IMG/VR virus record: IMGVR_UViG_3300010348_000552
Strand: one strand, 5' to 3'
DNA: 64,000 nucleotides
Origin: an uncultured virus (IMG/VR IMGVR_UViG_3300010348_000552)
Taxonomy: Duplodnaviria; Heunggongvirae; Uroviricota; Caudoviricetes
Shown here: positions 8,371 through 62,775 of the stretch, in pieces
How positions within the stretch are numbered: the stretch's first letter is position 1
How the letters are laid out: every line of letters starts with the position of its first letter
The notes under the pieces: model-generated
Seen by the model: the letters and a program-made list of their open reading frames with translations, nothing else
What the model was told of the DNA's origin: nothing
Databases searched by the model: none
Translations under genes and position numbers: made by a program

Positions 8371-8460
8371 TGGCGGGCCGGGAGAGATTCGAACTCCCAC
8401 GGGTGTAAGTTACCCTGCGGATTAGTTGTCCGCTGCTTTTACCATTTTCGCCACCGACCC
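8371..8460 (-). tRNA. Atypical long-variable-arm tRNA, Ser-like, anticodon loop CAACTAA
   Basis: GGGTCGG/CCGGCCC-G-CCA; GCGGA/TCCGC stem; GGGTAACTTACACCC variable arm; GGGAG-TTCGAAT-CTCTC T-arm. Confidence 0.85.
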
Positions 8461-8578: not shown

Positions 8579-8646
8579 GCGGCAAAACCGCTTTTTTGCT
8601 TGAAAACGTGACGGGAGGTGTGTACAATTCGACGGAGGTGAGACCG

Positions 8647-8830
8647 ATGCAGAAGAATTGTGCCATCTACACGCGAGTTTCGACGGAGGAACAGGCCGCC
8701 GAGGGCGTCTCGTTGGACATGCAGGAACGGTCGTGCCGAGAGGCCGCTGCCAAGTTGGGGTTCACGGTCACTGCCGTCTTCAAGGACGAGGGCATCTCGG
8801 CCTTCAGCCGAAAGCCTCGCCCGGCAGGTC
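8647..8830 (+). pseudogene. Truncated serine recombinase, N-terminal part only
   Basis: GGAGG RBS; AIYTRVSTEEQ...SLDMQ...FKDEGISA...RP, after which similarity is lost. Confidence 0.75.
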
Positions 8831-9138
8831 TTCCGAGGGAGGCAACGGCAGGAGTTGCGGCTGGAGGTAATATAGATGGACTATGCAGGGTGGCGTTCAG
8901 CAGAGTGAAGGTTAGCCTGCATAGTCAAAAGAAAAGGCCCCGTGCTGATACCACGAGGCCTTTCCACGACAGCGGCATGACTACCTTCAGGCTACGTGCT
9001 TTGTCGCCACTGTCGCCACCTGCTGTGCCAGCCGCATGACGGCGACATGGAGGGCGGCGTCACTCATGTTGGCCAGCACGAGGGACGGGAAGTGCTGCTT
9101 CAGGCCCTGTTCCCGACTACGTGCAGGTATATGGTTCA

Positions 9139-9540: not shown

Positions 9541-9569
9541 TTGACTTTTTGAGGATAGGCTGCTATAAT
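9541..9569 (+). promoter_or_regulatory. Sigma70 promoter of the recombinase
   Basis: TTGACT-17 nt-TATAAT. Confidence 0.8.
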
Positions 9570-9605: not shown

Positions 9606-10310
9606 ATGGCCCGACGCAAGGCCAGTTCGGAAAACAAGGCAATCGGCTATGTGCGGGTCTCAACCACACAGCAGGGGGAGAACGGCCACAGCATTGACGG
9701 CCAGATCGAACGCATGAAGCGGCGGTGTGCCGAAGAGGGACTGAAGTTGGTTGATATTGTAGTAGAGGTCGCCTCCAGCACCGCCGAACGGGAACTCTTC
9801 GAGGCCGTGCAGGAACGGATCAGCAATGACGAGGCTCGGTGCTTAGTGGGCTGCAAGATTGACCGGATTGGCCGCAGCCTTATCCACTTGGCTTCGATCT
9901 GCAACTGGGCCGAACGGGAGAAGGCCAGCATCTTCTCCGTGGACGAGGGTTGGCAGATACGTGACGGCAAGATCGTTGACAACATGCTTCCGTTTCGGAT
10001 AGCTATGGCTCAGGTGGAACTGACGAATATTCGGGAACGGACCCGACAGGGCTTGGCAGCGGCCAAGGCCAAGGGCGTGAAGTTGGGCCGCAAGCCGCAG
10101 AACCCAGAGCTGGCGGAGCGGTGCTACCAACTTCGGTTCGGCCAGCGGCTGAAGTGGCAGGAGATCGTTGACCTGCTCAATAAGGAGGGGGTTGTGACGA
10201 AGGGCGGCAGGGCGGTCAACCTGGGGACGTTGTATGGGATGGTCAGTTGGTATGCCCGAGACCGGAAGCTGCCGTTCGAGACGGGACGCATTGCCGAGTG
10301 TGGGGCGTGA
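9606..10310 (+). CDS. Serine recombinase (resolvase/invertase family)
   Basis: GYVRVSTTQQ, KIDRIGRS, IRERTRQGLAAAKAKGVKLGR, C-terminal HTH-like segment. Confidence 0.92.
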   Translation: MARRKASSENKAIGYVRVSTTQQGENGHSIDGQIERMKRRCAEEGLKLVDIVVEVASSTAERELFEAVQERISNDEARCLVGCKIDRIGRSLIHLASICNWAEREKASIFSVDEGWQIRDGKIVDNMLPFRIAMAQVELTNIRERTRQGLAAAKAKGVKLGRKPQNPELAERCYQLRFGQRLKWQEIVDLLNKEGVVTKGGRAVNLGTLYGMVSWYARDRKLPFETGRIAECGA

Positions 10311-10358
10311 CAGTGTTGGACGCGGCCCTAAAGCCAAAGTGCCGGTCGCGGACGCGGG
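10303..10358 (+). ncRNA. 5' part of a tmRNA-like tRNA-like domain
   Basis: GGGCGTG acceptor strand, stemless D-loop ending GAC, helix CGCGGCC/GGTCGCG, then GAC-GCGGG. Confidence 0.75.
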
Positions 10359-11608
10359 TTGATTGACATGAAGGGTATATAGTCGAATGAAGATCGTTCG
10401 CTCATCCAAATGTTCGACGAAGTGGCTGACAGCCGAGAAGCGGTCAGTTCTCCGTCGTGTCTTGGAGGAATACGGGCGGGTCGTCAACATCTTCATCGAC
10501 CATTTCTGGAAACTACCAACCCCGCCGTCCAAGGCGGAACTCCTAAAGCCAATCGTGGACATTCCCGAGACTTGGCTGGCCGCACGGTTCCGAAAGGTGG
10601 CCGCACGGGAGGCTCTGGACATTATCTCGTCCTCCCGCGAGTTGGCCGCCACCAAGCGTAAGGAACTGCTCTCGGCCTCTGCGAGGAAGTTCGACAAAGG
10701 GAAGATAAATCAGAGCAGGAAACTGCGTCTGAGGGCATCCTCTCTCGAAGCGGTCAAACCCACCCATTCGGGCCGCACGATGAGCGTCTCCACGACTATA
10801 GCCAATCTGCGTTACCCCAAGGACACGACCGAGTTCGACGGATGGTTGGAGATCAGGTGCGTAGGCGAAAAGATCGCCATCGATATACCGATCCGTTTCC
10901 ACCGTCACTATCGTAAGTTGAATCTCAGAGGCGAACGCCAGCAGGCTTGCGTTGTCTCCCTCGACTGGGTGCAGTTCCCATTCGAGATAGAGACCGGACC
11001 CAAGCGTGATGGCAATGTCGTCGTCGGGATCGATACCGGAATTAAGAGTCTCGCCACGCTTTCCACCGGGGAGAAGTTCGGCACCGACATCGAGGACATC
11101 ATCGACAGGATCAATCGGTGCAAGCACGGATCGAATGGACAGCAACGGGCGAGACGGGCATTGAGACAACGAATCGACGAGGTCGCACGGGAGATCACGT
11201 CCCGTGATGACATCGACATGGTAGTGGTGGAGAGGCTCACTGGTTTAGGATTCTTCACCAAGGTCAAACGTCGCTTGACCAGAAAGATGCGACGCTCGGT
11301 CGGTGCGTGGCTGTACGGATACTGGTTGAACAAGTTGCGTATGAACACGGAGGACGACCGTGTCGGCTTCCGCTCCGTTCCCGCTTGGAACACCAGCATC
11401 ACCTGCCCACGTTGCGGACACATCGACCGGAGGAACCGCCTGAGTCAGAGTGTCTTCCTGTGCCTTGGGTGTGGCCACCACGGGGATGCTGACGTGATAG
11501 CATCGGAAAACATCGGCGGTCGGTTCCTCTCCGGACCATACGGTGCCGGATGCAAACCACTGATTCTGGGAGTGACGTGAGTCAATTTTCCCAGATTCAG
11601 AGGAACGG
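10359..11608 (+). mobile_element. Non-autonomous tnpB-only element, IS607-like ends
   Basis: Removing it restores GCGGG-TTCGATT-CCCGC; GGTT at both junctions; right end GAACGG; contains only tnpB. Confidence 0.8.
10387..11580 (+). CDS. tnpB: RNA-guided endonuclease TnpB
   Basis: RuvC motifs VGIDTG, VVVERL, DADVIASENI; Zn finger CPRCG...CLGCG. Confidence 0.93.
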   Translation: MKIVRSSKCSTKWLTAEKRSVLRRVLEEYGRVVNIFIDHFWKLPTPPSKAELLKPIVDIPETWLAARFRKVAAREALDIISSSRELAATKRKELLSASARKFDKGKINQSRKLRLRASSLEAVKPTHSGRTMSVSTTIANLRYPKDTTEFDGWLEIRCVGEKIAIDIPIRFHRHYRKLNLRGERQQACVVSLDWVQFPFEIETGPKRDGNVVVGIDTGIKSLATLSTGEKFGTDIEDIIDRINRCKHGSNGQQRARRALRQRIDEVAREITSRDDIDMVVVERLTGLGFFTKVKRRLTRKMRRSVGAWLYGYWLNKLRMNTEDDRVGFRSVPAWNTSITCPRCGHIDRRNRLSQSVFLCLGCGHHGDADVIASENIGGRFLSGPYGAGCKPLILGVT

Positions 11609-11631
11609 TTCGATTCCCGCTACGTCCACCA
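11609..11631 (+). ncRNA. 3' part of the tmRNA-like domain (T-loop, acceptor strand, CCA)
   Basis: TTCGATT-CCCGC-TACGTCC-A-CCA pairs with 10303-10309 and 10354-10358. Confidence 0.8.
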
Positions 11632-11640
11632 GCAAGTAAG

Positions 11641-11665
11641 AGGCCCCGGTGTTAGCCGGGGCCTT
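11641..11665. terminator. Hairpin between convergent units
   Basis: AGGCCCCGG-TGTTAG-CCGGGGCCT. Confidence 0.7.
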
Positions 11666-11669
11666 GTCG

Positions 11670-11942
11670 TTAGGGCTGGTAGGTGGTGAGCAATTGTTTC
11701 ACTTCGGCTATGGCAGCAGTACCCCGTGGTACGGAACGGCCCAGGAGATCGTCCATCCCCACGCCGAGGGCGTCGGCAATCGCCACCGCCGAGTGTAGCT
11801 GGATGCCGGTATGCTTGGCTCCGATGTGTCCGACCTCGGCTCGACGGATGGTCATTATGTCGCAGTCGGCGAGTTCGGCCAGCTTCTCCCGGCTGAGTTT
11901 GTGCTGCTTACGGATTGACCGTAGGTTGCGTAGATAGACCAC
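11670..11942 (-). CDS. XRE-family HTH regulator
   Basis: LRSIRKQHKLSREKLAELADCDIMTIRRAE...IADALGV; AGGAGG then GTG. Confidence 0.88.
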   Translation of the reverse strand: MVYLRNLRSIRKQHKLSREKLAELADCDIMTIRRAEVGHIGAKHTGIQLHSAVAIADALGVGMDDLLGRSVPRGTAAIAEVKQLLTTYQP

Positions 11943-11944
11943 TT

Positions 11945-12139
11945 CTACCTCCTCGCAAAGCGTGTCGCTGCCGCCTTCGCTCCTCGGAGCGTGTTCACTG
12001 TCCCCCAACCGATTATCTGGTATGACGAGACGTCCCAAACGTAGAGGTCATCCTGCTTCTCGACCGTCAGCACATAGCTGTTGTCGAAGGCCAGCCAAGT
12101 CTTGCCGCATACGATCTCTTCCCACTTTACCTTAGGCAT
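11945..12139 (-). CDS. Hypothetical protein, possibly leaderless
   Basis: TTGACA-18-TATCAT ends 6 nt before the ATG. Confidence 0.6.
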   Translation of the reverse strand: MPKVKWEEIVCGKTWLAFDNSYVLTVEKQDDLYVWDVSSYQIIGWGTVNTLRGAKAAATRFARR

Positions 12140-22195: not shown

Positions 22196-22342
22196 TTCAC
22201 TCCCTTTCGTTACCCCTCCTTTAGGTCGTCGTTATAGCATTATGTAGTCACATTGTCAATAGTGACAGTGGTGGGACGAGTTGCAGGCCAGTTGACTGCA
22301 TGAAACGGTGTTGCTATGGTCCGTGCCAAAGCGGAGGGCAAC

Positions 22343-22756
22343 ATGGCTGACATTGTACTCGTGACGGGCGTGTTCGATGTGCTGCACCCTGGTCATATCT
22401 CACTCTTGCGGGACGTACATAATCTTTACCCCGACTATGAGTTGGTCGTCGGTATCAACGGTGACCGTCGCACCAAGGAACTCAAGCCCTTTGTCCTGTT
22501 CACGGCAGCGGAACGTAAGACCATTTTGGAAGCACTCGCGGTCGTAGACCGCGTGATCGTGTTTGAGGAAGACGACCCAGCGGCACTCATCGAACGGCTA
22601 CGTCCGAAGATATTCGTCAAGGGTATGGACTGGCATGGTACGCACATGGCCGAAGAGGACATCTGCCGCTACTACGGAGTAGAGATCATGTTCATGGGCA
22701 ACCAAAAGTCCCACTCATCCTCGGAGTTGAAGAGGCGGCTGCATGTTTCTAGCTGA
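22343..22756 (+). CDS. Nucleotidyltransferase, HldE/RfaE domain II-like
   Basis: TGVFDVLHPGH, VVGINGD, FEEDDP, FVKGMDW. Confidence 0.85.
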   Translation: MADIVLVTGVFDVLHPGHISLLRDVHNLYPDYELVVGINGDRRTKELKPFVLFTAAERKTILEALAVVDRVIVFEEDDPAALIERLRPKIFVKGMDWHGTHMAEEDICRYYGVEIMFMGNQKSHSSSELKRRLHVSS

Positions 22757-31953: not shown

Positions 31954-32955
31954 ATGACCCGGTTTCGCTTGATGGGGCCGCTGGCAAGGTACACAGGCTA
32001 TGCGGTCGGTTTCCGTGGTTTGGTCGGTAGGTTGTTGCAGTGCCCCGAAGTTGATTTCCAGTTGCGTCCTGCCCGTGGCAACGTCCCCCCTGAGACGGAA
32101 GACCACCTGTTGCAGTTGATCGCCAAGAATGGCTTCTACGATAGCCTGGGCGTCGTGGTGGGCTACCCTGACATGGCCGAACATATCTGTACGCGGTCTC
32201 ACGCCCTCTACACGATGTACGAGGCCGACGACATACCGGAGATATGGAAGCCGTTCGTGAACCGGGCCGATGAAGTGTGGGTGCCGAGTGCCTTCTGCCG
32301 AGAGGTCTTCGGCAAGTACAACCCGAGGGTGCGGGTCTGTCCGTGGGGCATAGACGAGACGCTCTACAAGCCTCGCAAGCGTAAGCCGAGGGGAGATTTT
32401 GTCTTCGGAGCCGTGGGGGTGCAGAGTCATCGCAAGGGGACGGATGTGCTGGTGAGTGCTTTCACGACGGCCTTCGGGGAGAGCGACGGCATACGGCTGG
32501 TCATCAAGACGCGGGACACGAAGCAGATGCCCGTCATTAGCAACCGACAGGTGACGGTGATAGACGAGGACTGGCCCGAGGCGAGGCTGGTGGAGTTCTA
32601 CCACGAGATAGACTGCTTGGTGCAACCCTCACGAGGCGAAGGTGTTGGGATGCCTCCCCTGCAAGCGGCCATGAGTGGGACCCCGGCTCTGGTGACGAAC
32701 TGGGGCGGGCCGGTTGACTACATTGACGACAAGGGGATATGGGGTATCCGTATCCGTGGGCTGTCGCAGGCCAAGCACATCAACGCCCTGTATGCCCAGT
32801 GGGCCGAACCCGACCCGTTGCACTTGGCCGAACTAATGCAGTGGGTATACGAGACGAGGCCAAAGGTGAAGGGTGACTATCGGCAGTGGACGTTGGGGAA
32901 CATGGCGGCGTCGTTCGTGGGTTGTGTGCGGGAGGCCGGGAACCGGCTAAGGTGA
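31954..32955 (+). CDS. GT4-type glycosyltransferase
   Basis: VWVPSAF, RKGTDVL, PSRGEGVGMPPLQAAMSG. Confidence 0.9.
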   Translation: MTRFRLMGPLARYTGYAVGFRGLVGRLLQCPEVDFQLRPARGNVPPETEDHLLQLIAKNGFYDSLGVVVGYPDMAEHICTRSHALYTMYEADDIPEIWKPFVNRADEVWVPSAFCREVFGKYNPRVRVCPWGIDETLYKPRKRKPRGDFVFGAVGVQSHRKGTDVLVSAFTTAFGESDGIRLVIKTRDTKQMPVISNRQVTVIDEDWPEARLVEFYHEIDCLVQPSRGEGVGMPPLQAAMSGTPALVTNWGGPVDYIDDKGIWGIRIRGLSQAKHINALYAQWAEPDPLHLAELMQWVYETRPKVKGDYRQWTLGNMAASFVGCVREAGNRLR

Positions 32956-35651: not shown

Positions 35652-35660
35652 GGAGTGGCA

Positions 35661-36758
35661 ATGTCTGTCCCCCACCGTCAGTTGTACCGCGTCGTCTTCT
35701 CACAGGAGTTGGCCGTTGGTGCCGTCCGCAGTGGGGTCGTGGCTGGCTATCGCCTGCTGTACCACGGCCTCCCCTACGTGTTGACCAAGAAGTATCTGGA
35801 CAAGATGATGGAGACCGATGAACAGGCCGTGGCCGAACCCCTGCCCGATAGACCGTTGACGGAGACCTCGCAGTCGTTGCTGGTCTTCTTCCCCGGCGGG
35901 ATCGGGGACGTGATTGCCCTCAAGGCGGTGCTGGAAGACCTGCACCAACTACGACCTTGGCTCAATATCACCGTGGCATCAACTGTCGCTGACCAATGGA
36001 TAATTGGTGACGTAGCAACCGTGCTTGACTATCCAGTTACGGAGACGGTGGCTAAGGGCTTCGATGCTTGGGTGAACGTCGCGGAGATGGACTTTTCTTC
36101 GGTGGGCCGGGAACTCGTTGAAACCTTCGCCCAGTACGTCGGCATACCCTGTCCTGACCACGCCCCCAATATTGAACCGTACTACGGTTACATAGAGGCA
36201 ATGGAACACTATATCCGCAACTGGGATAAGCCTCGCGTCGGTATTCACTTGGCGTCGGCTTCCCACTGGCGGTCAATCCCCAACTTCGTCGGGTTGTACG
36301 TAGCAATGGAAATGGCCGACCGGGGCTACGATGTCTACCTGCTCGGGGGGCCGGAAGACCGCATTGTCTTCACCGATAATGAAGAACACTCAGACCCGCC
36401 AGACAACATCTACGACATGACACAGGTATTGGGGCCACTGGAATACTACCTCGGCTTCCTACCTTCTCTGGACGTGCTGCTGACCTGTGATTCGGGGCCG
36501 ATGCACATGGCCGGGGCTATGAACATTCCCACCTTGGCTCTGTTTGGCATGACTAACGGTGAGAAGCGGACTGGCTACTATCCCTCGGTTCGCTATATCC
36601 AGAGTGACATGGAGTGTAGCCCTTGTGAACGGATTGCTGAGGTTGCCCCCTGTGACGGGCAGTGGTGTGAAGCCCTGGCCCGCATGAACCCGCTGTACAT
36701 TGCCGACCAACTGGAGGAAGTCTACCGTGAAAACCATGACGCTGACTGTCTCGCATAA
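35661..36758 (+). CDS. GT9 heptosyltransferase-like protein
   Basis: GGIGDVI; LLTCDSGPMHMAGAMNIPTLALFG; CSPC. Confidence 0.88.
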   Translation: MSVPHRQLYRVVFSQELAVGAVRSGVVAGYRLLYHGLPYVLTKKYLDKMMETDEQAVAEPLPDRPLTETSQSLLVFFPGGIGDVIALKAVLEDLHQLRPWLNITVASTVADQWIIGDVATVLDYPVTETVAKGFDAWVNVAEMDFSSVGRELVETFAQYVGIPCPDHAPNIEPYYGYIEAMEHYIRNWDKPRVGIHLASASHWRSIPNFVGLYVAMEMADRGYDVYLLGGPEDRIVFTDNEEHSDPPDNIYDMTQVLGPLEYYLGFLPSLDVLLTCDSGPMHMAGAMNIPTLALFGMTNGEKRTGYYPSVRYIQSDMECSPCERIAEVAPCDGQWCEALARMNPLYIADQLEEVYRENHDADCLA

Positions 36759-36915
36759 GCCGAACGCCAAAGAGGAGAAGGAACTCCGCCGCCTCATGCG
36801 TACCGAACAGTTGGGACAGTTTGTGGTCCGCATTAGGAACGGTGACAGCACCGAGGACATGGTACTGGAACTCAAGAAGCAGGACGCGGAGGGACGTGAA
36901 CTCCTACAAGGGTAG
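36736..36915 (+). CDS. Small hypothetical protein
   Basis: Fills the operon gap. Confidence 0.45.
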   Translation: MTLTVSHKPNAKEEKELRRLMRTEQLGQFVVRIRNGDSTEDMVLELKKQDAEGRELLQG

Positions 36916-36917
36916 CC

Positions 36918-37187
36918 ATGACTATCACAGAACCAGAGTTCATCATTCATGCCACGGTCGCTAAAGGTGATAAGTGTGTCCGCTGTTGGATGAGAGACGA
37001 ATCTGTGGGCCAACATCCAGACCATCCTGAGTTGTGTGGACGCTGCACAATGAATGTCCGTGCTGGCATACGTCGCAATCTATGGCCCGATGTTGAGGTC
37101 ACGGAACTGCAACGGTGGTGGGCTTGGAATGGTGACAAGTCATTCGGTATCACATATCCAGGTTCGCCCTATGAGGCTCAGAAGTAG
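36918..37187 (+). CDS. Protein with an IleRS-type C-terminal zinc finger
   Basis: AKGDKCVRCW...VGQHPDHPELCGRCTMNV. Confidence 0.8.
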   Translation: MTITEPEFIIHATVAKGDKCVRCWMRDESVGQHPDHPELCGRCTMNVRAGIRRNLWPDVEVTELQRWWAWNGDKSFGITYPGSPYEAQK

Positions 37188-37189
37188 CT

Positions 37190-38011
37190 ATGCAAAACGC
37201 CCTCCTCTACCTACTCTACAACTCCGAAACTCAGATCAGGCGTAACTGGTCAAGCCTCCTTCAAGTCAAGCATCCCCTGACCATGCGGGTGATTGACAAC
37301 GCCTCAACTGATGGCGGGGCGGCCCTGCTGGAACAGGCCGGGGCCATCGTCCACCGCAACCCCGTCAACACCTACTTCACTCGTGCCATCAACGACGGAC
37401 TCCGTTCCCTCATGGACAAGGACTGGGACTGGTGCTTCATCGTCAACCCTGATATTGAGTGTCCGGTGGGTTGGGACGCCCTAATGGTAGACCAGTTGAC
37501 GGCATGTGAGGATGTTGGCATAGTCGGGGCACGTTTGGTGAACTACTATGGTAGTGTGGTTCACGCTGGTGGGCTGGTAGCTGAACCGCAGGTTCTTTTC
37601 TGGACCAGTCATTTCCCGCTACGGGAGACTTGGGGCACTCTACAACAGGAAGCGGTCTGTGTGACTCACTTCCGGCATCGACTCGTAGAGTGTAAAGCGG
37701 TAGTACCGTGTGCTTGGGTCACATTTGGTGCCGTCGCTCTCCGGCGGAAGATGCTGGAACAGATCGGCCTCCTAGACGAGACATGGGTACTCTATCGTTC
37801 CGACGCAGAACTCTGTATGCGGGCTTGGGCCGCTGGTTGGAAGGTCATGTACAACGGAGCAGTCACTTTCCGGCACGAGGATGGTGCCAACGTCAGGAAG
37901 GCTGGCTCTGCTGTCCACGAAGTTGCTAAGAATGACCTACGGCGGTTCTCCCTTACGGAGGAACAACGATGGCTTCAATCACTGGGCGGCAGACCGCCCT
38001 GGAGGACGTAA
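37190..38011 (+). CDS. GT2 glycosyltransferase
   Basis: IDNASTDG, VNPD, IGLLDE, DAELCMRA. Confidence 0.9.
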   Translation: MQNALLYLLYNSETQIRRNWSSLLQVKHPLTMRVIDNASTDGGAALLEQAGAIVHRNPVNTYFTRAINDGLRSLMDKDWDWCFIVNPDIECPVGWDALMVDQLTACEDVGIVGARLVNYYGSVVHAGGLVAEPQVLFWTSHFPLRETWGTLQQEAVCVTHFRHRLVECKAVVPCAWVTFGAVALRRKMLEQIGLLDETWVLYRSDAELCMRAWAAGWKVMYNGAVTFRHEDGANVRKAGSAVHEVAKNDLRRFSLTEEQRWLQSLGGRPPWRT

Positions 38012-48162: not shown

Positions 48163-48608
48163 AAATCCTAAAGAAGTCCGTCCAGTTGTACTGCGTCCCC
48201 GAGTGCTTGGTCCCGGTTGACGCTCTCGTGGCCCCCGGTTCGGTCTCGATTCCCCAAGGGCTATTGCCATGCGTTGTCACCCGTAGTGATAGCAACTGCT
48301 ACGACAAACTCATGGTCCTGATGAAGTGGTTTGTTGAACACCTCGAAGTGGTTGACGGCTACCTCGTGGCCAGTGCGGCGTTGCCTGCCCTCTCGCTCAA
48401 TGACGAGTTGTGGGGTGACGCCCTGTACCTGCTGAAGCAGGCCCTCGCCCCCTACGAGTTTGTGTCGGGGCCAGTCTTCGTTAGACAGTCTGGTGGCCGC
48501 ACTGGACAGTTCGCGGTGGCCGACCTCTATGTGCGGCTGCTCAATGGTAGCACGACTATCCCCCATGTCAGTTTCCATCTGGTACGACAAGAAGGAGCCG
48601 ACGAATGA
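48159..48608 (+). CDS. Hypothetical protein
   Basis: ATGA coupling on both sides. Confidence 0.65.
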   Translation: MKILKKSVQLYCVPECLVPVDALVAPGSVSIPQGLLPCVVTRSDSNCYDKLMVLMKWFVEHLEVVDGYLVASAALPALSLNDELWGDALYLLKQALAPYEFVSGPVFVRQSGGRTGQFAVADLYVRLLNGSTTIPHVSFHLVRQEGADE

Positions 48609-49483
48609 AGGTAGCCGTCATTGGCGACCTGATGTTGGATTTGGAGTTCGGCAACGCCGCTGCCAACGGTGACTGCCCCGAACGAACGGGCCTGCCCGTC
48701 TACAAGTCGAGCAACGTGGTCGTAGCTGCCGGGGGGGCGGGGAACGCCGCCAATATCCTGCGGGAGTTGAAGGCCACCGTCCACCTCTACTGTGACGGCC
48801 CTGGCCGGGGGGACCGCCACTGGATCGCCGAGTTGACCAAGCAGGTGTGCCGGGCCAACCGTATCTGCTGGTCCAACGAAGGCTTCATTTCGCTCAAGGT
48901 ACGAGGGATTGACCGGGCTAATCAGGTCATTTCCCGATTGGATTGTGACACGAACACGGAACGGAAGCACGTATTTGCCGCTCTCGAAGCCTTGCTGGAC
49001 GAAGTACGGGAGGGCAAGTGGGATGCCGTGCTGGTCTCGGACTATCGCAAGGGCTGTCTTGGCAAACAGAACGAGGTGGTCGTCAGTGAGATATTGAAGG
49101 CGGCCAGTTGTAGTGTGGTTGACCTCAAGGGGCAGGACTATGCACTATATGCCCACGCCACGGCAATCACGCCGAACCAACCGGATAGCATGAGGATATT
49201 CGGGACGGACGACCCGTGTGAGATCAGACGGTTGGTCGGCTGCAAGGTCGTCTACGTGACCCGTGGTAAAGATAGCGTCCTCATGGGTTGTGACCAGGGC
49301 ATGACTGAAATCTCCGTTGAAGACAACATCCCCAACGTGTACTGCGTGGGTGCCGGGGATGCTTTCGCAGCCGGTGTGACAATGGCCTTGGGGCAGGGCC
49401 GGTCTTACATCGAAGCGGGCGTGTGTGGCGTGAAGGTGGCCCAAGCCTATATCGCCAAGCCGAGGAAGAGTTCGCTCCGATGA
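48605..49483 (+). CDS. PfkB-family sugar kinase, HldE/RfaE domain I-like
   Basis: VIGDLMLD, GGAGNAA, SDYRKG, ITPN, VGAGDAF. Confidence 0.88.
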   Translation: MKVAVIGDLMLDLEFGNAAANGDCPERTGLPVYKSSNVVVAAGGAGNAANILRELKATVHLYCDGPGRGDRHWIAELTKQVCRANRICWSNEGFISLKVRGIDRANQVISRLDCDTNTERKHVFAALEALLDEVREGKWDAVLVSDYRKGCLGKQNEVVVSEILKAASCSVVDLKGQDYALYAHATAITPNQPDSMRIFGTDDPCEIRRLVGCKVVYVTRGKDSVLMGCDQGMTEISVEDNIPNVYCVGAGDAFAAGVTMALGQGRSYIEAGVCGVKVAQAYIAKPRKSSLR

Positions 49484-54961: not shown

Positions 54962-55906
54962 ATGACTGTTGAAGACTACCTTCGCACTCTTGACGACCCG
55001 CAGGCCGCTATCTCCTACCCGTTGCAGTCGCTCTATGAATCCGATAGCGGCCATGTGGTCATGGGTCTCAACCCGGAGGTGCAGCAGCGGGTCCGTGCCG
55101 GGGAGTTGATGGTTGAACCGTTGCAGGTGGTACGCAGGCCGGGGTTGGGAGACAAGGTGTTCGCCATCGCCGCCTGCCATGAATATCTGGCCCAGCACCC
55201 TGAGTCCGACCTCACTTTCTCTGGCTACGATACCGACACTTGGCTCAAGTACCTACCGTGGCTGAAGACGGGTCTCAACATGAAGGCGAACACCGTGGTC
55301 AACCTCGACAACACGCCCTGTAACGGCGGTGACCGCACACAACTCATGGGGCAGATATTGGGGGTCGAGGTGACCAGTATCGAGTTCCCAATCAAGGTCC
55401 CGAAGCGTAACCTGGGCCTGCCCAGTCGCTACTACGTCTTCGTCCCCTTCGCCAATCAGAACGGTCCTCGGTCGCTGCCACTGGAGACGACGCTGGAAGT
55501 CCTGAGACGATCCCCGTTGCCGTTGGTCTTCACGGACGCCAAGTCCTACGAGTTTGAGTTGGGGCACGGAGTTGTCAACCGTTCGGGCCTGGGCATGGAC
55601 GAGTTGCTGGCCCTGGTTGCGGGCAGTGCCGGGGTAATCGCCTGTGATACGGGGGTGCCGTGGTTGGCCGCCGCAATGGGCAAGCCTGCTATGGTGTTCT
55701 TCAGCCACGTCCGTTCGTGGGAACGCACCAATACCTGCCAGCATGTCCTCGCGGTTGATAGTCCTGCCGACTGTGCCAAGAACTGTGGGGACCATGTAGG
55801 TTCGCGGCCTGCCTGTCGTTGGCGGGATGGCGTACCATCCTGCACCCGGTACTACACACCAGAACTCGTTCGGCACTACATGCGTGAGTTCGGAGGCCTA
55901 ACGTGA
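54962..55906 (+). CDS. GT9-like glycosyltransferase
   Basis: GLGD; VIACDTGVPWLAAAMGKPAMVFF. Confidence 0.82.
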   Translation: MTVEDYLRTLDDPQAAISYPLQSLYESDSGHVVMGLNPEVQQRVRAGELMVEPLQVVRRPGLGDKVFAIAACHEYLAQHPESDLTFSGYDTDTWLKYLPWLKTGLNMKANTVVNLDNTPCNGGDRTQLMGQILGVEVTSIEFPIKVPKRNLGLPSRYYVFVPFANQNGPRSLPLETTLEVLRRSPLPLVFTDAKSYEFELGHGVVNRSGLGMDELLALVAGSAGVIACDTGVPWLAAAMGKPAMVFFSHVRSWERTNTCQHVLAVDSPADCAKNCGDHVGSRPACRWRDGVPSCTRYYTPELVRHYMREFGGLT

Positions 55907-58044
55907 TAGCGGATGATTTTCGGCACCTGAGCCAATATTGTCAGGGTATTGGGGTGGAGTTCGGAGAAGACGATGGCCACATCTCCTCGGGCCTACAGGT
56001 GCGTAACTGCCGCCGCAGAATCCCTCACGTCTCGGTCTGCGTGTCCAGTCCCGACGCCGTCAAGGTGGACGCCGAGAGCCAGGACTTCGTGGCTTGTATC
56101 CACTACCTCGAACACTACCAATCGCCGAAGGAAATCTTGGCCTACTGGTGGTCGTTGCTACGTATCGGCGGGCACATGGTTATGGTCCTGCCCGAGGCCG
56201 GGCGTTACCCACACGTCGGCCAGCCCGAGTGTAACCCCGACCACAAGGTAGACTACAACCTCGGCACCTTCGTCATGCGGCTGGCCAGTTGCGGTTTTGT
56301 CTTCGAGGTCGTCGAGAAGGGCTTCGTTGGGTCCAGTTTCTTCATCGTCGTGAAGAAGACCGCCAATGCCAGTGTTGTTGACGACTGTGACGCCCAGGAG
56401 ATTGTGGTTGAAGGCCGTTCCTTCGCGTCCCCGCCGATCAAGTGTAAGTACAGCGTCGTGATCCCCTTCTACAACCATGTCGTGACTACGCAGACCTGTG
56501 TGGACCAGTTATTCGCGGTCGCCAAGCCCGATGAAGTCATTCTCGTGGACGACGGTTCGACCTACCGTTATCCCAAGGACGACCGAGTACGGATTGTCCG
56601 CTTCAACCGCAACAGTGGTTTTCCGATGGCCGTCAACCGTGGCGTCTCGGAAGCCCGGCATGAGTTTGTGGTCCTACTCAACAACGACGTGAAGCTGCAC
56701 CCCGGCTGCATGGAGAAACTGCTTCACGCCCTCCGTGACCCTGCCGTTGCCATCGCGGGCCAGGGGGGCGGCAAACTCAACGCGGACTATGTGTACGTGG
56801 GGCAGGACCTGCTCGACCCCGACTATATCGAGATGTTCTGCTGTGCCTTCCGCAAGTCAATGTGGGAACGGGTCGGCTCCCTAGATACCGACTTCGGGCT
56901 GGGCTACTGTGAGGATAGTGACTGGGGCCTCAGGGCACGACGCCTGGGCTTCAAGTTGGTCGCCATCCCCGGCCTGTGTAAGCACGAGGAGAGTAAGACC
57001 TTCGGCAAGAGTGAAGAGATCAAGGCCCACATCGAACGCAACCGCCAGAAACTCGTTGCCAAGCATCACCGGGGGAAGGCCTTGTGGGTGATGGCCTCCT
57101 TGGGCTGCAACGGCGGGTCAAAGGTCGTGCAGAAGCTGGCCGGGGCCATGCTCGACGCCGGTTGGCAAGTGGACGTGTGTTCCTTCACGGAATGGGCCAC
57201 TGCTGCTAAGGGTTGGGAACGGTTCGGCCATAAGACGACGGCAGAGGTAGACGACAAATACGACGTGGCCTTCAGCACCTTCCACTCGACGATGCCCTTT
57301 GTGGCGGGGTTGCGGTGCCAGCAGAAGATTGCCCTGATCCAGTCCGACGAACCCGAGTGGGGACCGGACGCGGTGGCTAAGACCAACTTCCTGCTGCCGG
57401 GCTTCAAGCACATCATCATTGCCGACCACATGCGGGAGTTCAAGCAGAAGTACGGCATGAAGATCATCGGCCAGCTTGACAACGGCGTGGACAATCTCAC
57501 CTTCACGCCCAAGTGGGTCTTCGATAGGTCGTGGCCGCACTCGCTCATGTTGATTCGGAAGGGCAGCATGGTCTGGTACGACGGCCAGCAATACGCCGAA
57601 GAGGCCGTGCTGGAGTTGGCAAAGCGGTATCACGATCTCAGTGTGACGGTGTTGGGGGGGACGAAGCCCCAGTGGCCCTGTGAGGTGAACCACGTTCGGA
57701 CCTACGATGAGGACGAAATCTGTGACCTCTACAACAGTGTCTCGTGCGTGGTCGTGCCGTCCCTGATTGAGGGTTCGAGCCTCGTGCCCTTGGAGGCAAT
57801 GGCCAGTGGTTGTCCGGTCGTCTCAACCGCCGTGGGGATGCACTATGCCACCGACGGGGTGAACTACCTGAGCGTCCCCTACAAGGACAGCAAGGCCATT
57901 GTCGAAGCGGTTAGCCGGGTGTTCGACGATGAGAAACTGCGGTGGCAACTCTACCGGGAGGGGCTGCGGCTTTCACATAGTAGGACGTGGGAGCGGGAGC
58001 AGGAACAGTTCATGGCAATCCTCGGCAAGGAGCTTCGGCAGTGA
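55903..58044 (+). CDS. Methyltransferase-GT2-GT4 fusion
   Basis: HYLEHY...LRIGG; VVIPFYN, VDDGST, LLNND, EDSDW; PSLIEG...LEAMASG. Confidence 0.88.
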   Translation: MIADDFRHLSQYCQGIGVEFGEDDGHISSGLQVRNCRRRIPHVSVCVSSPDAVKVDAESQDFVACIHYLEHYQSPKEILAYWWSLLRIGGHMVMVLPEAGRYPHVGQPECNPDHKVDYNLGTFVMRLASCGFVFEVVEKGFVGSSFFIVVKKTANASVVDDCDAQEIVVEGRSFASPPIKCKYSVVIPFYNHVVTTQTCVDQLFAVAKPDEVILVDDGSTYRYPKDDRVRIVRFNRNSGFPMAVNRGVSEARHEFVVLLNNDVKLHPGCMEKLLHALRDPAVAIAGQGGGKLNADYVYVGQDLLDPDYIEMFCCAFRKSMWERVGSLDTDFGLGYCEDSDWGLRARRLGFKLVAIPGLCKHEESKTFGKSEEIKAHIERNRQKLVAKHHRGKALWVMASLGCNGGSKVVQKLAGAMLDAGWQVDVCSFTEWATAAKGWERFGHKTTAEVDDKYDVAFSTFHSTMPFVAGLRCQQKIALIQSDEPEWGPDAVAKTNFLLPGFKHIIIADHMREFKQKYGMKIIGQLDNGVDNLTFTPKWVFDRSWPHSLMLIRKGSMVWYDGQQYAEEAVLELAKRYHDLSVTVLGGTKPQWPCEVNHVRTYDEDEICDLYNSVSCVVVPSLIEGSSLVPLEAMASGCPVVSTAVGMHYATDGVNYLSVPYKDSKAIVEAVSRVFDDEKLRWQLYREGLRLSHSRTWEREQEQFMAILGKELRQ

Positions 58045-58508
58045 AACTCGACATTGGCTACGGGGCGGGTAAAGCCGAAGGCTTCGTCGGCATAGACATT
58101 CGTGACCTGCCCGGTGTGGACATCGTAGCGGACATAACCAAGGGCGTTGACCTACCAGACGGTTGTGCTGAGGAAGTGCTTCTCTCGCATGTCATGGAAC
58201 ACATTGTCGAGTGTGACAAGGCCATCTAGGAGATCAATCGGCTCTGCCAGCCGGGGGCACTTATCACCATCATTGTTCCCGACGTGCAGCACGAAGCCTA
58301 TCACGTCCCCACGCACTGCAAGCCGTGGAGTCGCTACTTGTTCAAGCACCACCTCGCCTTGTGGGAGTTGGTATGTATCGAGGAAGTAGTTGATGAGGAG
58401 ACGTTGGCCGTTGCCAGGAAGTATCTGCCCCACATAACAGCACCGGATGCCATGCTACTATTTTGGAACTGCCGAAAGGAACTGAGGGTCGCATGCCGAC
58501 GCCGCTAA
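58041..58508 (+). pseudogene. Class I SAM methyltransferase with in-frame TAG at 58227-58229
   Basis: KLDIGYG...SHVMEH...AI*EINRLCQPGA...PTH; both halves are in one frame. Confidence 0.75.
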
Positions 58509-59626
58509 AGGTCCTTGCCGTCGTGCCGGATGGTAACGTCATGGATCGGCTCCGTATCTACTCGCAGTGGAACGTGGACCTCGAATGGCACCTAATCATG
58601 GTGCGGCCCGACGCGGCCCTCGAACCGACGGATTGGGTGGAACGGGTGCATCATCTTCAGATTGAAGATCGGTCGCTGCTGGATAGCGTCCCCGAGGCGT
58701 TCCCCGACCTTGAACACTGTCAGTACGAACGGGCTTGCCACGCCATCCGTGACCCCTTCGTGGTGAAGTGGCCGCTCTATGACCACGAGGCCATCGAGAA
58801 CGGTATCCTGCGTCTCAGGAACAAGTTGATGGCAATGGGACCAGCCGATCTAATCGTAACCTGGGGGGAACGGTGCTGGTATAACGAAGTGGCTATCGCC
58901 TTCGCCCAAGAAGTCGGCGTCCCGGTCTGTAGGTTGGAACGGGCGACGTTCCCTGGAACCATCGTGGCCGACGGCACGGGCTTGGAACAGGGACGCACCG
59001 ACCTACCCTCCTGCCATCGTGTCTCCGAGATGGAAGCCTTCCCCTACGAGCAACTGGAAACATGGTTGAGCATAGCGGTCTGGCAGAGCGTTGAACAGCA
59101 GCAACGCACTACCCGTGGCATGGTGGAAGTCTACACTGACAATCGCCCCACGGTCTTCGTCCCCCTCCAGGTGCCGTTTGACACCAACATCGTCTTCCGT
59201 TCCGAGGGCTTTGGCAACTTCGAACTGCTGGAGTATGTGGCGGCCAAGTACAAGGATTGTCGGGTACTTGTGAAGGTCCACCCTGGAGACGCATACTCCA
59301 ATAGTCAACACGTCGCCGCCTACTGTGCCGACAAGGGTTGGGAGTTGCTGCCCTATAGTTCACAAGCCTTGATTGCGGCCTCGGACTTAGTGGTGAGCAT
59401 CAATAGTCAGTGTATCATCGAGGCCTGGATGCACGCCGTAGACGTGGACATTATCGGCAAGCCCGCCTTCGACCTGCCGGAAGAACCGGACAAGCAAGCC
59501 CTACTCTACACCCTCCGTTTCGCGTACTACATTGAGCCGTGGCAACTGACCACAAGACTGTCGCAGATCAGGGAGTCCTATGTCGATACAGAATCGTTGG
59601 GGCGGGGAACGGATTTCGTTGGCTAA
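58493..59626 (+). CDS. KpsS/KpsC-like capsule polysaccharide protein
   Basis: FVPLQVPFDTNI, VKVHP, VVSINS...EA. Confidence 0.75.
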   Translation: MPTPLKVLAVVPDGNVMDRLRIYSQWNVDLEWHLIMVRPDAALEPTDWVERVHHLQIEDRSLLDSVPEAFPDLEHCQYERACHAIRDPFVVKWPLYDHEAIENGILRLRNKLMAMGPADLIVTWGERCWYNEVAIAFAQEVGVPVCRLERATFPGTIVADGTGLEQGRTDLPSCHRVSEMEAFPYEQLETWLSIAVWQSVEQQQRTTRGMVEVYTDNRPTVFVPLQVPFDTNIVFRSEGFGNFELLEYVAAKYKDCRVLVKVHPGDAYSNSQHVAAYCADKGWELLPYSSQALIAASDLVVSINSQCIIEAWMHAVDVDIIGKPAFDLPEEPDKQALLYTLRFAYYIEPWQLTTRLSQIRESYVDTESLGRGTDFVG

Positions 59627-60200
59627 CGACACGCCCACGAACATAATCCAGGTCCACCTGAGCCGCTACGTGTGGGCCATGCACTACTGCACCGGCAAGC
59701 GGGTACTCGATGCCGGGTGCGGGATTGGCTACGGGTCATGGCTACTGGGTACGGTGGCAGCGGAGGTTGTCGGGATTGATAGCAGTGACGCGGCTCTCGC
59801 TGCCGCCAAGTCGGCCTTCGATGGTCTCTTCATCTGCTTGCCAATCGAGGAGGCCCCGGCTCAGATCACTACCCCTTTCGAGACCATCGTGGCCTTCGAG
59901 GTCGTGGAACACTTGACGGACATGCAGCAGGGGTTGACGGCCTTGAAGTCCATGCTGGCCCCCGATGGCGTGGCGGTCATTAGCCTGCCCTTGCACCACC
60001 CCTCCGAGTTCCACCATCGGCGTGACATGGCCTATGAAGACTGGGTAGGCGTCGTCTCCGAACAGTTCGTCATACGGGACACCTTCTGGCAGGGGCTGGA
60101 AGAATATCAAAGACAGGACGGCAACGTGAACATCCGTCGGTTGGTTGACGGGACGCCCAACACGGGCATCGTCATCTTTGAGGTGGCGGCCAGTGAGTGA
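59580..60200 (+). CDS. Class I SAM methyltransferase
   Basis: HLSRY, VLDAGCGIGYG, FEVVEH. Confidence 0.9.
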   Translation: MSIQNRWGGERISLANDTPTNIIQVHLSRYVWAMHYCTGKRVLDAGCGIGYGSWLLGTVAAEVVGIDSSDAALAAAKSAFDGLFICLPIEEAPAQITTPFETIVAFEVVEHLTDMQQGLTALKSMLAPDGVAVISLPLHHPSEFHHRRDMAYEDWVGVVSEQFVIRDTFWQGLEEYQRQDGNVNIRRLVDGTPNTGIVIFEVAASE

Positions 60201-61212
60201 GTTTCGGTTCTGCCTCTGGCTACCGTTTCAAGTCGAGAGACTGGATGTACGGTGGTTGGCCGAGATTGGTATCTATGGCATAATGGGGCCGACTGAAGTT
60301 CTCACGGCCACGTTCGCGGACCTGCTGCATAGTTACGGGCTGCGTGTCTTCCCACAGTGGCCGGAATGGGAACGTCTTGGTCTTTCCGGTCCTGCGGAAG
60401 CCTTCCGCAATCACTTGGGATTGATGGCTGCTAATGAAGTCGGCCCCTTGGGCAGCCCCTCGTACTGGCACCCGTTTGCCAACGAACTCGCGTCCCTATT
60501 ACTCGACGACCTCGAAGCTAGCCGACCGGACGGGTTACTCATCATCCCCCGTTACAGTGACAACCCCTTCCCTAAGCATTGGGAGAGGGTTGATGAGGAT
60601 AACTTTCTCAACAATGCTCAGTTCTACAGTTTTGACCAGTGGGCGGTAGCGGATTGGGCACGACACAGTGACGAACCGATGCCCACTCATGCCAGTGTGA
60701 CGCTGGACAATAGCCTTGGCACCAGCCATGACTTCTACCGCTGGTATCAAGGGGCGTGGCAGCGTCGTATCGAGGAGCTTACGGCAGCGGCTCTGGCGGC
60801 GGGCCATCGCGAGTTGTATACTTGGTATGCGCCCCTACCTGCCTTGACCTGTGAGAACATCGCCCTCGGTTCCTATAACTCCGCCTGGGTCTACGACAAG
60901 TGGGTGCGACAAGTGACGAACCAAGGAGGGCATCCCACGATCCTTGCCACTTGTCTGTTTGCGTCATGGTTGCCAATGCGGTCCACAGCCATTGCAATGA
61001 CACTGGACTTAGTTGAGAAGCACGGTTGGGACATGATGGCCGGGGCGGAGATTTGTAATAGCACGGATGGTGTCCTGATTGGCTTACTAAACAACGGGTT
61101 CTTTGGCAAGCGTAACGGACTATCATTGTTCGGGTCGGGCCGGTACTTCTTCGACCCAGTAAACCGCAGACCACTTACGGAGTTGGTGAGGAGGTTAGTT
61201 GATGCAGAATAA
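60193..61212 (+). CDS. Hypothetical protein
   Basis: About 339 aa, overlap-coupled in operon. Confidence 0.7.
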   Translation: MSEFRFCLWLPFQVERLDVRWLAEIGIYGIMGPTEVLTATFADLLHSYGLRVFPQWPEWERLGLSGPAEAFRNHLGLMAANEVGPLGSPSYWHPFANELASLLLDDLEASRPDGLLIIPRYSDNPFPKHWERVDEDNFLNNAQFYSFDQWAVADWARHSDEPMPTHASVTLDNSLGTSHDFYRWYQGAWQRRIEELTAAALAAGHRELYTWYAPLPALTCENIALGSYNSAWVYDKWVRQVTNQGGHPTILATCLFASWLPMRSTAIAMTLDLVEKHGWDMMAGAEICNSTDGVLIGLLNNGFFGKRNGLSLFGSGRYFFDPVNRRPLTELVRRLVDAE

Positions 61213-61843
61213 TGACGGCTACAACGGCGCATCCTTTGTCGGCCACCCCTATTCCACACCGTTAGCAACTAAGGACGTGCTGCACAAAAACTCCATGCTC
61301 TATCGTCGCAGTGTGTTGGGACACGTTGACGAGGGGGGAATGGGTGACCGGATCGGCGTGGGTCACGGTGACTTATTGATGCTGGAGTTGGTGCTGGCAA
61401 CCAACCCCGCAATCAGCAACTTGGTCGAGTTGGGGACGTGGTATGGCTACACCTCACTCTACCTGGGGATGGCGGCACGGCTGCGTGGTGGTGCCCTCTC
61501 GACCTTTGACATTGTTGACTTGCGGCCCGACGACGTGAAGGCCGCTTGGCTACCAGAGATGTTCTTCTTCGGCGGGGACCTCTTCAGTGAGACTTTCAAG
61601 GACGCCTCGGACTTAGCTTCTCTACCCAACACCTTCCTCTTTGTAGACAACGGTGACAAGCCGCATGAACTGGCTCTCTTCCACTCCTGTCTGAAGCCCG
61701 GTTCGATTGTTGCGGTACACGACTGGGAGGATGAGATCGGCCCTGCCGATGTCTCCTGTCTGAAGACGGAAGCGTTTGAGCCGATACTGCACGATGCGGC
61801 CCGTCTGTTGCACTCTTCCGTTAGGGCCTGGAGGAAGCGATGA
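61202..61843 (+). CDS. Class I SAM methyltransferase
   Basis: VELGTWYGYTS, FVDNG, LKPGSIVAVHD. Confidence 0.82.
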   Translation: MQNNDGYNGASFVGHPYSTPLATKDVLHKNSMLYRRSVLGHVDEGGMGDRIGVGHGDLLMLELVLATNPAISNLVELGTWYGYTSLYLGMAARLRGGALSTFDIVDLRPDDVKAAWLPEMFFFGGDLFSETFKDASDLASLPNTFLFVDNGDKPHELALFHSCLKPGSIVAVHDWEDEIGPADVSCLKTEAFEPILHDAARLLHSSVRAWRKR

Positions 61844-62775
61844 AAGACCGCCATCTACGCTTCTGTGTTTCACTGACTGGTATCGAAGACGGGGGCCTAC
61901 ACGTTGGCAACCTCATGGTCTTGCTCACGAACGTCGCCCTAGCCCGGCGGTACGGCTATGGGTTGTTGGTCCGCTATGGCTGGCAGTGGGTGGACTACTT
62001 CAAGTATTGGGGGGGGCGACTCCCCGGCCTGAACGTGCTGAGAGACAACCTGGACTACTTCGACATTCGGGAAGACATTCTGGTGGACGAGGCCATACGT
62101 CTGCCGCACTACATCGAAGACTGCCTTGCGTTGTCAAACATGGGGTTGCTGGAACAAGACGAGAGCGTGAAGATCGAGGCGAACTTCGATGCCTACTTGG
62201 CCGAGTATCTACCCGGCCTTGACCCCCACTGCGACTTCGTTGACTGGTTGCTTGATACCTACCGTCGCCTCGGCATAACCTCGCCGCTGTTCGTGCCCTA
62301 CCGTAACGGTCTCTACCCCGACCGTTGCCAGGGGATACTTAGGACCACTGCCACCGATGGCACGATTTTGTATTGTGGGGTGCGTGAAGCGGCCTGCAAC
62401 GTACTCGACGACTTGTGCTATGACATCGCTGCCGTGGTACGCGGGCTTGATATAGGGACGACGTATCTACCACTGGAATACGCCCTGTACTGGCGTCTCG
62501 GTAGAAACCCCCCGCTCTCCTGTCATTTGCCCGAAATACGCTCTCGCGGGGAAAAGATGTCGAAGCAGTCGGGCAACGCCAATGGCTATCGGTTACTTGA
62601 TTTACGGGAACGGTTTGACGCGGATGATCTGGCCCGCCACTTAGTCGGGTTGTGTATGGACATTCCCGCCGACCTCAACACCTTTGCTGATGTATGCCAG
62701 CATATCGAGTGGGCTTGGCTCAAGCCTCTCGCCCATATTGACATCGAGGAGACAGTATTCGCATGTCAGAGTTGA
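61840..62775 (+). CDS. GluRS/GluQ-like HIGH-superfamily protein
   Basis: LHVGN, VVRGLD, HLPEI...GEKMSKQ. Confidence 0.75.
   Translation: MKDRHLRFCVSLTGIEDGGLHVGNLMVLLTNVALARRYGYGLLVRYGWQWVDYFKYWGGRLPGLNVLRDNLDYFDIREDILVDEAIRLPHYIEDCLALSNMGLLEQDESVKIEANFDAYLAEYLPGLDPHCDFVDWLLDTYRRLGITSPLFVPYRNGLYPDRCQGILRTTATDGTILYCGVREAACNVLDDLCYDIAAVVRGLDIGTTYLPLEYALYWRLGRNPPLSCHLPEIRSRGEKMSKQSGNANGYRLLDLRERFDADDLARHLVGLCMDIPADLNTFADVCQHIEWAWLKPLAHIDIEETVFACQS

Follow-up and report, generated by a model that had tools for sequence, protein, structure and literature searches.

Why would two short stretches of phage DNA, separated by 1250 nucleotides (nt), fit together as if they belonged to a single RNA gene? 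The question arises in a 64,000-nt stretch of DNA from an uncultured virus (IMG/VR record IMGVR_UViG_3300010348_000552), which we analyzed as a whole and call the window. Within it, a first-pass annotation joined positions 10303-10358 to positions 11609-11631 and read the product as a mimic of transfer-messenger RNA (tmRNA) made of a tRNA-like domain (TLD) with no message. We put the probability at about 80% that the two stretches together make up a message-less mini-tmRNA gene of a phage, interrupted by an IS607-family element of 1250 nt whose only gene is tnpB. The TLD is all that such a mini-tmRNA would keep of tmRNA: an alanine-type acceptor and a T-arm, a D-loop analogue that is unpaired and ends in GAC, and a helix termed P2a. 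The coordinates of the gene, the element, and the features around them are collected in Table 1.

The two stretches and their fit

The letters at 10303-10358 and 11609-11631 are exactly as the annotation wrote them, and the structure that it drew is the minimum-free-energy fold of the script-joined 79-mer (-32.2 kcal/mol). This fold consists of a 7-bp acceptor, 9 unpaired letters, GAC, a 6-7 bp helix on a 16-nt loop, GGAC, and a T-arm with a 5-bp T-stem and the loop TTCGATT. The acceptor pairs run G-C, G-C, G-U, C-G, G-C, U-A, and G-U, which places G3:U70 beside A73 and an encoded CCA. In the joined 79-nt sequence (the 79-form), the 6 consecutive pairs of P2a come directly after GAC, and GGAC comes directly after the helix. 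There is no mRNA-like domain, no pseudoknot, and no tag frame, and P2a closes the 16-nt loop instead. A T-stem of 5 bp and a 7-nt T-loop of the canonical pattern UUCGAnU form across the joint of the 5' and 3' pieces, with the break at the boundary between T-stem and T-loop.

The folding z-score of the 79-mer against dinucleotide shuffles was only -1.0, indicating that thermodynamics alone says little. We also asked how often the fit itself would arise. When the upstream 130 nt were shuffled 200,000 times, 165 of the shuffles contained a 5-bp T-stem at the joint together with a 7-bp acceptor located 25-70 nt upstream, and the same combination was found at 22 of ~128,000 window positions. A chance fit of the two pieces is thus unlikely, and 10303-10358 and 11609-11631 are confirmed as two parts of one small RNA gene that is split by the 1250-nt element.

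Table 1. Features of the split gene, the inserted element, and their surroundings (window coordinates; ORF, open reading frame; aa, amino acids)
Feature	Position	Strand	Basis or remark
Promoter-like site	9541-9569		11/12 matches; upstream of the 237-aa recombinase ORF
Serine recombinase ORF, resolvase/invertase type, 237 aa	9597..10310	+	Pfam Resolvase, residues 15-161, E 1.2e-26
Mini-tmRNA, 5' part	10303..10358	+	Sequence, segment parse, model R1
Acceptor, 5' strand	10303-10309	+	
D-loop analogue, 9 nt	10310-10318	+	
Polymorphic base	10314	+	T in the window, G in the uninterrupted alleles of runs X2 and X3
GAC	10319-10321	+	
Helix P2a, 5' strand	10322-10327	+	
16-nt loop closed by P2a	10328-10343	+	
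Helix P2a, 3' strand	10344-10349	+	
GGAC	10350-10353	+	
Six letters missing from uninterrupted alleles	10351..10356	+	Family-model positions 51-56
T-stem, 5' strand	10354-10358	+	
Solo IS607-family TnpB element, 1250 nt, no transposase gene of its own	10359..11608	+	Right-end homology; left end after GG
TnpB ORF, 397 aa	10387..11580	+	Pfam Cas12f1-like_TNB, E 2.4e-12; OrfB_IS605
Mini-tmRNA, 3' part	11609..11631	+	Model R1; Rfam RF00023
T-loop	11609-11615	+	
T-stem, 3' strand	11616-11620	+	
Acceptor, 3' strand	11621-11627	+	
A73	11628	+	
CCA	11629-11631	+	
GC-rich 8-bp hairpin, then T-rich tail	11642..11671	+	11 nt past CCA; several hairpin models matched

A family of phage mini-tmRNAs

To place this gene, we searched IMG/VR with a motif taken from the consensus line of the Rfam tmRNA model, allowing short spacing only. 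The motif occurred at 80 or more loci (at least L024-L103). At least 6 of the 7 acceptor pairs could form in 61 of the 80 loci listed, which reduced to 53 unique sequences of 68-86 nt. All 53 have G3:U70 and A73, neither of which the motif demanded, and 27 encode CCA. A P2a stem of 3-9 bp stands right after GAC and before GGAC in 41 of the 53, with letters that vary widely, and the inner segments of family members span 7-34 nt. ARAGORN called none of the 53. The 79-form of the window parses in the same manner, with its 6-bp P2a and a loop motif resembling those of L046, L050, and L083. In its D-loop analogue, the 9-nt length and the closing GAC are consistent with the family, but G-T-G stands in place of the GG that family members carry.

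The consensus structure of the family comprises the acceptor stem, P2a, and the T-arm. Compensatory changes were found at 10 of its 19 pairs in an 11-sequence alignment. In a larger alignment of 73 distinct rows, which had been fitted to the model and in which some rows are non-members, both sides had changed at 15 of the 19 pairs, and pairing held in 94.5% of cells vs. 73.4% in shuffles, with 0 of 500 shuffles reaching the observed score. All 20 members tested against the Rfam tmRNA model (RF00023, gathering score 47) scored 54.6-79.5 bits. A tRNA gene lay within 300 nt at 6 of 20 tested loci. Beside one of these IMG/VR mini-tmRNAs, we observed two weak matches to YrlA (RF02553; L036:37-164) at 37.9 and 40.5 bits, where the gathering score is 69.

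The annotation had treated an RNA of this kind as novel, which it is not. Mycobacterium phage DS6A carries a "TLD-only" tmRNA that lacks a coding sequence (CDS), as reported by Hudson, Lau & Williams in 2014 (PMC4131195) and again in PMC11915505, and the kind is frequent in IMG/VR. Among titles and abstracts, we found no survey of phage TLD-only tmRNAs that went beyond DS6A. We located the DS6A gene at JN698994 28478-28560, and it served as a control. Against RF00023, it reached 43.2 and 34.7 bits, below the gathering score.

Scores of the two pieces

From 11 members in uncultured phages, we built a covariance model, R1. It scored other family members at 53-77 bits and the DS6A gene, which was not in its seed, at 62.2 bits. 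The 5' piece of the window (10302-10358) matched R1 positions 1-58 at 27.4 bits (a rough E of 1.4e-6) and was cut at its 3' end exactly at 10358, whereas the 3' piece (11609-11628) matched positions 59-78 at 15.3 bits (E 8e-4, equally rough) and was cut at its 5' end. Because one match ends at position 58 and the other begins at 59, the pieces abut exactly at the element ends. R1 took an extra G at 10302 as its position 1; base pairing sets the 5' end of the gene at 10303. The sole other match of R1 in the uncut window was a tRNA-Met at 19 bits.

The Rfam tmRNA model was also the best match in the tRNA clan for the 3' piece (positions 349-374, 10.8 bits, E 0.005). With the 5' piece alone, Rfam gave no match, and ARAGORN at its default threshold called nothing in either rejoined form, the 79-form or the 73-nt form described below. 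These negatives are uninformative because the same tests missed DS6A: the 5' half of its gene alone has no Rfam match, and ARAGORN misses the gene. A sequence-only hidden Markov model (HMM), built from 41 family members, gave the script-joined 79-form 30.6 bits (E 2e-8) vs. 4.1 bits for tRNA-Met. With both pieces matching, in register, a covariance model that also recognizes the published DS6A example, the mini-tmRNA identity that the annotation proposed is supported, as is membership of the window RNA in the phage family of TLD-only tmRNAs.

These scores bear on whether the pieces could instead be a decayed ordinary tRNA gene, such as a relic of tRNA-Ala in a phage tRNA region. The T-arm, the acceptor stem, G3:U70, and A73 are all common to tRNA-Ala, and two real tRNA genes stand 2-2.6 kb away. 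Moreover, the 73-nt allele can form a hairpin like a D-arm, and ARAGORN at a lowered threshold proposed an odd 92-nt cloverleaf from 10284. However, that cloverleaf needs an acceptor mismatch, a weak D-stem, and an 8-nt anticodon loop, and the default ARAGORN search, as noted, found nothing. An anticodon arm is absent, the 79-form far outscores the phage tRNA-Met under the HMM, and the clan match of the 3' piece favors tmRNA over tRNA. In addition, a column-by-column comparison with the mini-tmRNA family shows agreement at the GAC, P2a, the loop motif, and GGAC. We therefore regard a tRNA relic as very unlikely.

Even less probable, in our estimate, is that the 3' piece is the captured end of a host tRNA or tmRNA gene, an attachment-site remnant next to a recombinase, with only an incidental fit to the 5' piece. 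A serine recombinase gene does end on the first bases of the RNA, its final 8 bases overlapping the start of the mini-tmRNA gene. Phage attachment sites also often include the 3' end of a tRNA or tmRNA gene (see also PMC11915505). Still, the 22-mer from T-loop to discriminator occurred in 0 genomes of 185,579 bacterial and archaeal species, and the recombinase is of the small invertase type rather than an integrase. The independent match of the 5' piece to R1 positions 1-58 and a chance fit of ~1 in 1,000 likewise speak against a captured fragment.

The inserted TnpB element

We identified the insert by comparing its protein and its ends with those of related elements. Four IMG/VR loci encode a TnpB ~50% identical to that of the window, with 52-55% identity for L012-L014. 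In an alignment of the window protein with three relatives, D216, E282, and D369, which we take to be the RuvC triad, are invariant, as is a CxxC...CxxC motif of the zinc-ribbon kind. The window TnpB also has an insertion of ~28 residues (residues ~88-115; 10648-10731) with no counterpart in three IMG/VR relatives. Beside tnpB, L012-L014 carry a TnpA (split in L013) in which a MerR-type helix-turn-helix (HTH) comes first and a serine catalytic domain second; by their gene content, these relatives are IS607-family elements.

The ends of the insert are well defined. On the right, homology stops at GAACGG in 4 of 4 copies (the window and L012-L014), after which the flanks diverge. On the left, the element starts directly after GG in the window, L012/L015, L013, and L014, the last of which lies in an unrelated flank, and the window letters from 10359 align with the left-end starts of the relatives. 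Neither inverted repeats nor a target duplication accompany the element, which ends in GG and was inserted just after GG. As described in PMC13565253, elements of the IS607 family end in GG and insert within a GG or directly behind it; they produce no duplications, and their excision leaves no scar. Judged by its sequence, the insert matches this published GG rule (PMC13565253). With the element set at 10359-11608, scarless removal gives exactly the 79-mer first proposed.

A search for an IS607-type TnpA in the window (tblastn with the TnpA of a relative) returned nothing convincing, the best match (E 0.005) being to a truncated resolvase ORF, and the same search found none in G001, a fragment of a near-identical phage. 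Lacking a TnpA of its own, the element is non-autonomous. We found no second copy of its ends in the window. A TnpB search of bacterial genomes gave one irrelevant match of 26 residues only, and a 17-mer across the left joint had three matches, all by chance and inside coding DNA.

Three other readings of the insert were tried and rejected. The 237-aa recombinase upstream is not the TnpA of the element, as its catalytic domain is N-terminal, in the opposite order to the TnpA of the relatives. An IS605-type reading, based on insertion after a TTGAT motif, was given up in view of the serine TnpA found in the relatives and of their ends, which are bounded by GG. A group I intron or IStron had no Rfam match in the window at the gathering score, and only 28 nt separate the left end from the TnpB start codon, leaving no room for a ribozyme.

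Natural alleles

The annotation predicted that related phages would carry the intact form of the gene. We compared contigs of four public runs (X1-X4) over 9900-12000. Run X1, from which the window probably derives, carries the element-split allele at a depth of 17. In X2 (2016) and in X3 (2025, from another study), a single contig has 10350 fused directly to 11607, and the shorter side of the joint spans 216 and 189 letters, respectively; X4 covered the flanks only, with no joint there. The joint in X2 and X3 skips 1256 nt rather than 1250, so these uninterrupted alleles are 73 nt long, not 79. The prediction was therefore borne out in that uninterrupted alleles exist, but not in their form, as they are shorter and lack the GAC linker on which the annotation laid stress. 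At 10314, where the window and these alleles differ, the G of X2 and X3 restores the GG of the D-loop analogue, and the HMM scores the G form 0.9 bit higher.

The six missing letters can be assigned to any position within a CGCGG-A-CGCGG direct repeat, and the linker that precedes the T-stem is among them. Pieces cut at the natural joint cover R1 positions 1-50 and 57-78, indicating that the natural alleles are without six family positions. In the 73-nt allele, the letters of the D-loop analogue can pair into a hairpin. A 25-mer of the 3' piece had no match in IMG/VR; in metagenomes of the Joint Genome Institute (JGI), it was found in only two contigs (L016 and L017), which are 100% identical to the window, element included.

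These alleles leave two ways to order events. The native gene could be the 73-nt form, with the six letters, and with them the GGAC linker of the 79-mer, having arrived as part of a 1256-nt insert whose left end happens to mimic a T-arm. Only 73-nt uninterrupted alleles were observed, and a single 1256-nt event is simpler than an insertion plus a separate 6-nt change. However, the left ends of four relatives start after GG with T(T/A)(G/C)..TAAC and align at 10359 rather than 10351. A native 73-mer would also require three letters of the P2a 3' strand to double as T-stem, and it would leave the 6-bp complement to the P2a 5' strand as a coincidence. Further, the 73-form lacks model positions 51-56 and scores ~7 bits lower, and deletion by slippage is easy in the 5-nt direct repeat to which the six letters belong. 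On balance, a native 73-nt gene seems unlikely to us. In our reading, the element inserted into the 79-form, and the 73-form is a slippage deletion.

The reading of the locus as a mini-tmRNA gene split by the element remains the one that we prefer, although a number of observations weigh against it. The covariance-model evidence is the sum of two truncated matches, with the pieces scored separately, and its E-values are rough. Moreover, the fishing motif behind both R1 and the HMM already fixes GGGG, GAC, GGAC, and the T-arm, so part of the scores is built in; the D-loop analogue, the complementarity of P2a, and the loop motif were not fixed by it. The window gene begins GGGC where the family has GGGG, and its D-loop analogue has G-T in place of the family GG. 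The only uninterrupted alleles seen are 73 nt long and without positions 51-56, and no sampled allele is intact with the full family design. The HMM gave the 73-form 22.9 bits, or 23.8 with G at 10314, vs. 30.6 for the 79-form, and the minimum-free-energy fold of the 73-mer is not tmRNA-like, with another hairpin replacing P2a. No SmpB gene was found among 62 window ORFs in a Pfam scan. Finally, the phage persists with the gene broken, as seen from the depth of 17 in X1 and the identical copies L016 and L017, which implies that, over the short term at least, the phage can do without the RNA. As an RNA gene, the split copy most likely does not function. The persistence of the phage, together with the lack of a sampled intact allele of full family design, suggests that the mini-tmRNA is dispensable or being lost in this phage lineage.

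Proposed function of the RNA and the element

By analogy with tmRNA and with the report on DS6A, an intact RNA of this type could be released by tRNA-processing enzymes, charged by alanyl-tRNA synthetase (AlaRS), and then bound by SmpB. With no message on which translation could resume, it would compete with the host tmRNA and damp tagging. For the "TLD only" form of DS6A, or a molecule similar to it, inhibition of the host tmRNA has been reported, perhaps by titration of SmpB (PMC4131195 and PMC11915505).

For the element, we propose a homing mechanism on the model of the published IS607/TnpB scheme (PMC13565253). A guide RNA for TnpB would run from the right end into the stretch from T-loop to acceptor (11609..11631), and the GGG before the joint would act as a putative G-rich target-adjacent motif (TAM). 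TnpB so guided could cut uninterrupted alleles, and repair would then copy the element in or keep it in place. Because both uninterrupted forms, of 79 and 73 nt, keep the GGG and the target, TnpB could cut either and drive homing.

A more far-reaching version would make the element an active RNA-guided homing drive on mini-tmRNA genes, with the split and the 6-nt-deleted alleles as outcomes of conflict. Under this version, the element would spread in co-infections by cutting uninterrupted alleles and perhaps related targets of the ssrA type, and the two kinds of allele, found in the same kind of habitat, would have come from a conflict over a phage anti-tagging RNA. The first 12 letters of the guide target are common to many phage mini-tmRNAs and to bacterial tmRNA genes. 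We consider such an active drive doubtful.

The phage and its surroundings

The window belongs to a novel tailed phage (59.5% G+C), whose proteins include a terminase, a head protease-capsid fusion, and many sugar-modifying enzymes. Neither the locus nor 24 kb of the window had a close match among GenBank phages, and the public runs that hold the phage are mostly from activated sludge. The fragment of a near-identical phage, G001, lacks the region of the mini-tmRNA locus. IMG/VR contained no relatives of the upstream recombinase, which PHROG annotates as a DNA invertase, or of a neighboring 283-aa protein. In a 147-aa ORF at 8596-9039 (+), no more than the first third of the catalytic domain of a serine recombinase is present (Pfam Resolvase profile 2-51); from this truncation, it is likely a recombinase remnant, ~550 nt upstream of the intact invertase-type recombinase. 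Past the 3' part of the gene, the hairpin at 11642..11671 is likely, from its sequence, a terminator shared with a converging HTH gene, 11670-12038 (-), although a simple terminator scan did not list it.

Rfam and ARAGORN together found two ordinary tRNAs only in the window and none at the mini-tmRNA locus. One of the window's tRNA genes is a tRNA-Ser (anticodon ACT, with a long variable arm) called by ARAGORN at 8371-8460 (-), to which the Rfam tRNA model gave 40.8 bits; the first Rfam scan at the gathering score missed it. At the start of the window, a 63-nt tandem repeat (17-190) is present in 2.8 copies with a 99% match. The opening 208 nt of the window align with nine mutually overlapping sites at the end of G001 (59812-61153), pointing to a longer repeat array at this genome position. 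The sugar-pathway gene set of the phage is unusually rich (22316-22756, 31954-32955, 35655-38011, 48605-49483, and 55903-63716) and comprises a cytidylyltransferase-like heptose enzyme, a GT9 heptosyltransferase, GT2 and GT1 glycosyltransferases, a PfkB kinase, a capsule-synthesis-like protein, and several methyltransferases.

Significance

The locus adds a case to a little-noticed class of phage genes in which tmRNA is cut down to its SmpB-binding, alanine-accepting head. Such genes probably tune or block host ribosome rescue and protein tagging during infection. What is new here is an unusual, well-bounded transposon interruption, together with a natural allele series, in a known kind of RNA. 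In public data, the same phage has the gene either split by an RNA-guided transposon or uninterrupted but six letters short. This series is a natural test bed for whether the mini-tmRNA is dispensable, and for whether homing into a conserved RNA gene is what lets solo TnpB elements persist in phages. Split genes of this kind escape tRNA, tmRNA, and Rfam annotation.

Comparison with known systems

The closest published relative in kind is the TLD-only gene of DS6A. Like it, the window gene has a G3:U70 acceptor, an unpaired D-loop analogue ending in GAC, a short P2a helix closing a loop of 16-20 nt, a T-arm, and no tag frame. The two differ in that the DS6A gene is uninterrupted, with the linker GGCAC and the end CUA, whereas the window gene is split and has GGAC and CCA. 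DS6A and its host are unrelated to those of the window, and beyond the shared motifs there is no meaningful sequence identity. With tRNA-Ala, the window RNA shares G3:U70, A73, a canonical T-arm, and the CCA end. Unlike tRNA-Ala, it has no D-stem and no anticodon arm, was not called by ARAGORN, and had no Rfam tRNA match to its pieces.

Mobile elements in this part of tmRNA-type genes have well-known precedents in the group I introns of tmRNA T-loops (PMC11915505). The window element likewise lies in the T-loop region of a tmRNA-type gene. By contrast, it is a DNA transposon with TnpB, has no ribozyme, and shows no sign of removal at the RNA level. It also sits at the stem/loop boundary, while group I introns occupy the reported loop subsites 2, 3, 7, or 8. 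Among titles and abstracts, we found no report of a TnpB/IS607 element or other transposon in a tmRNA-type gene.

As a transposon, the insert resembles the IS607-family insertion sequences that PMC13565253 reviews together with restorative homing by TnpB and omega-RNA, in its GG end, its G-rich flank after GG, and its Cas12f1-like TnpB, and its relatives carry the serine TnpA of the IS607 family. Unlike IS607 elements with TnpA, it is without TnpA, resides in a phage, and has a small RNA gene as its target; its TnpB activity, TAM, and guide are putative.

Finally, reduction of tmRNA to its tRNA-like domain also occurs outside phages. CDS-less tmRNAs of ~65 bp are described from some mitochondria and from Mallomonadaceae plastids (PMC11915505), and the window RNA resembles them in this reduction. 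Still, the organellar genes are vertically inherited together with SmpB, whereas the window RNA is an accessory gene of a virus.

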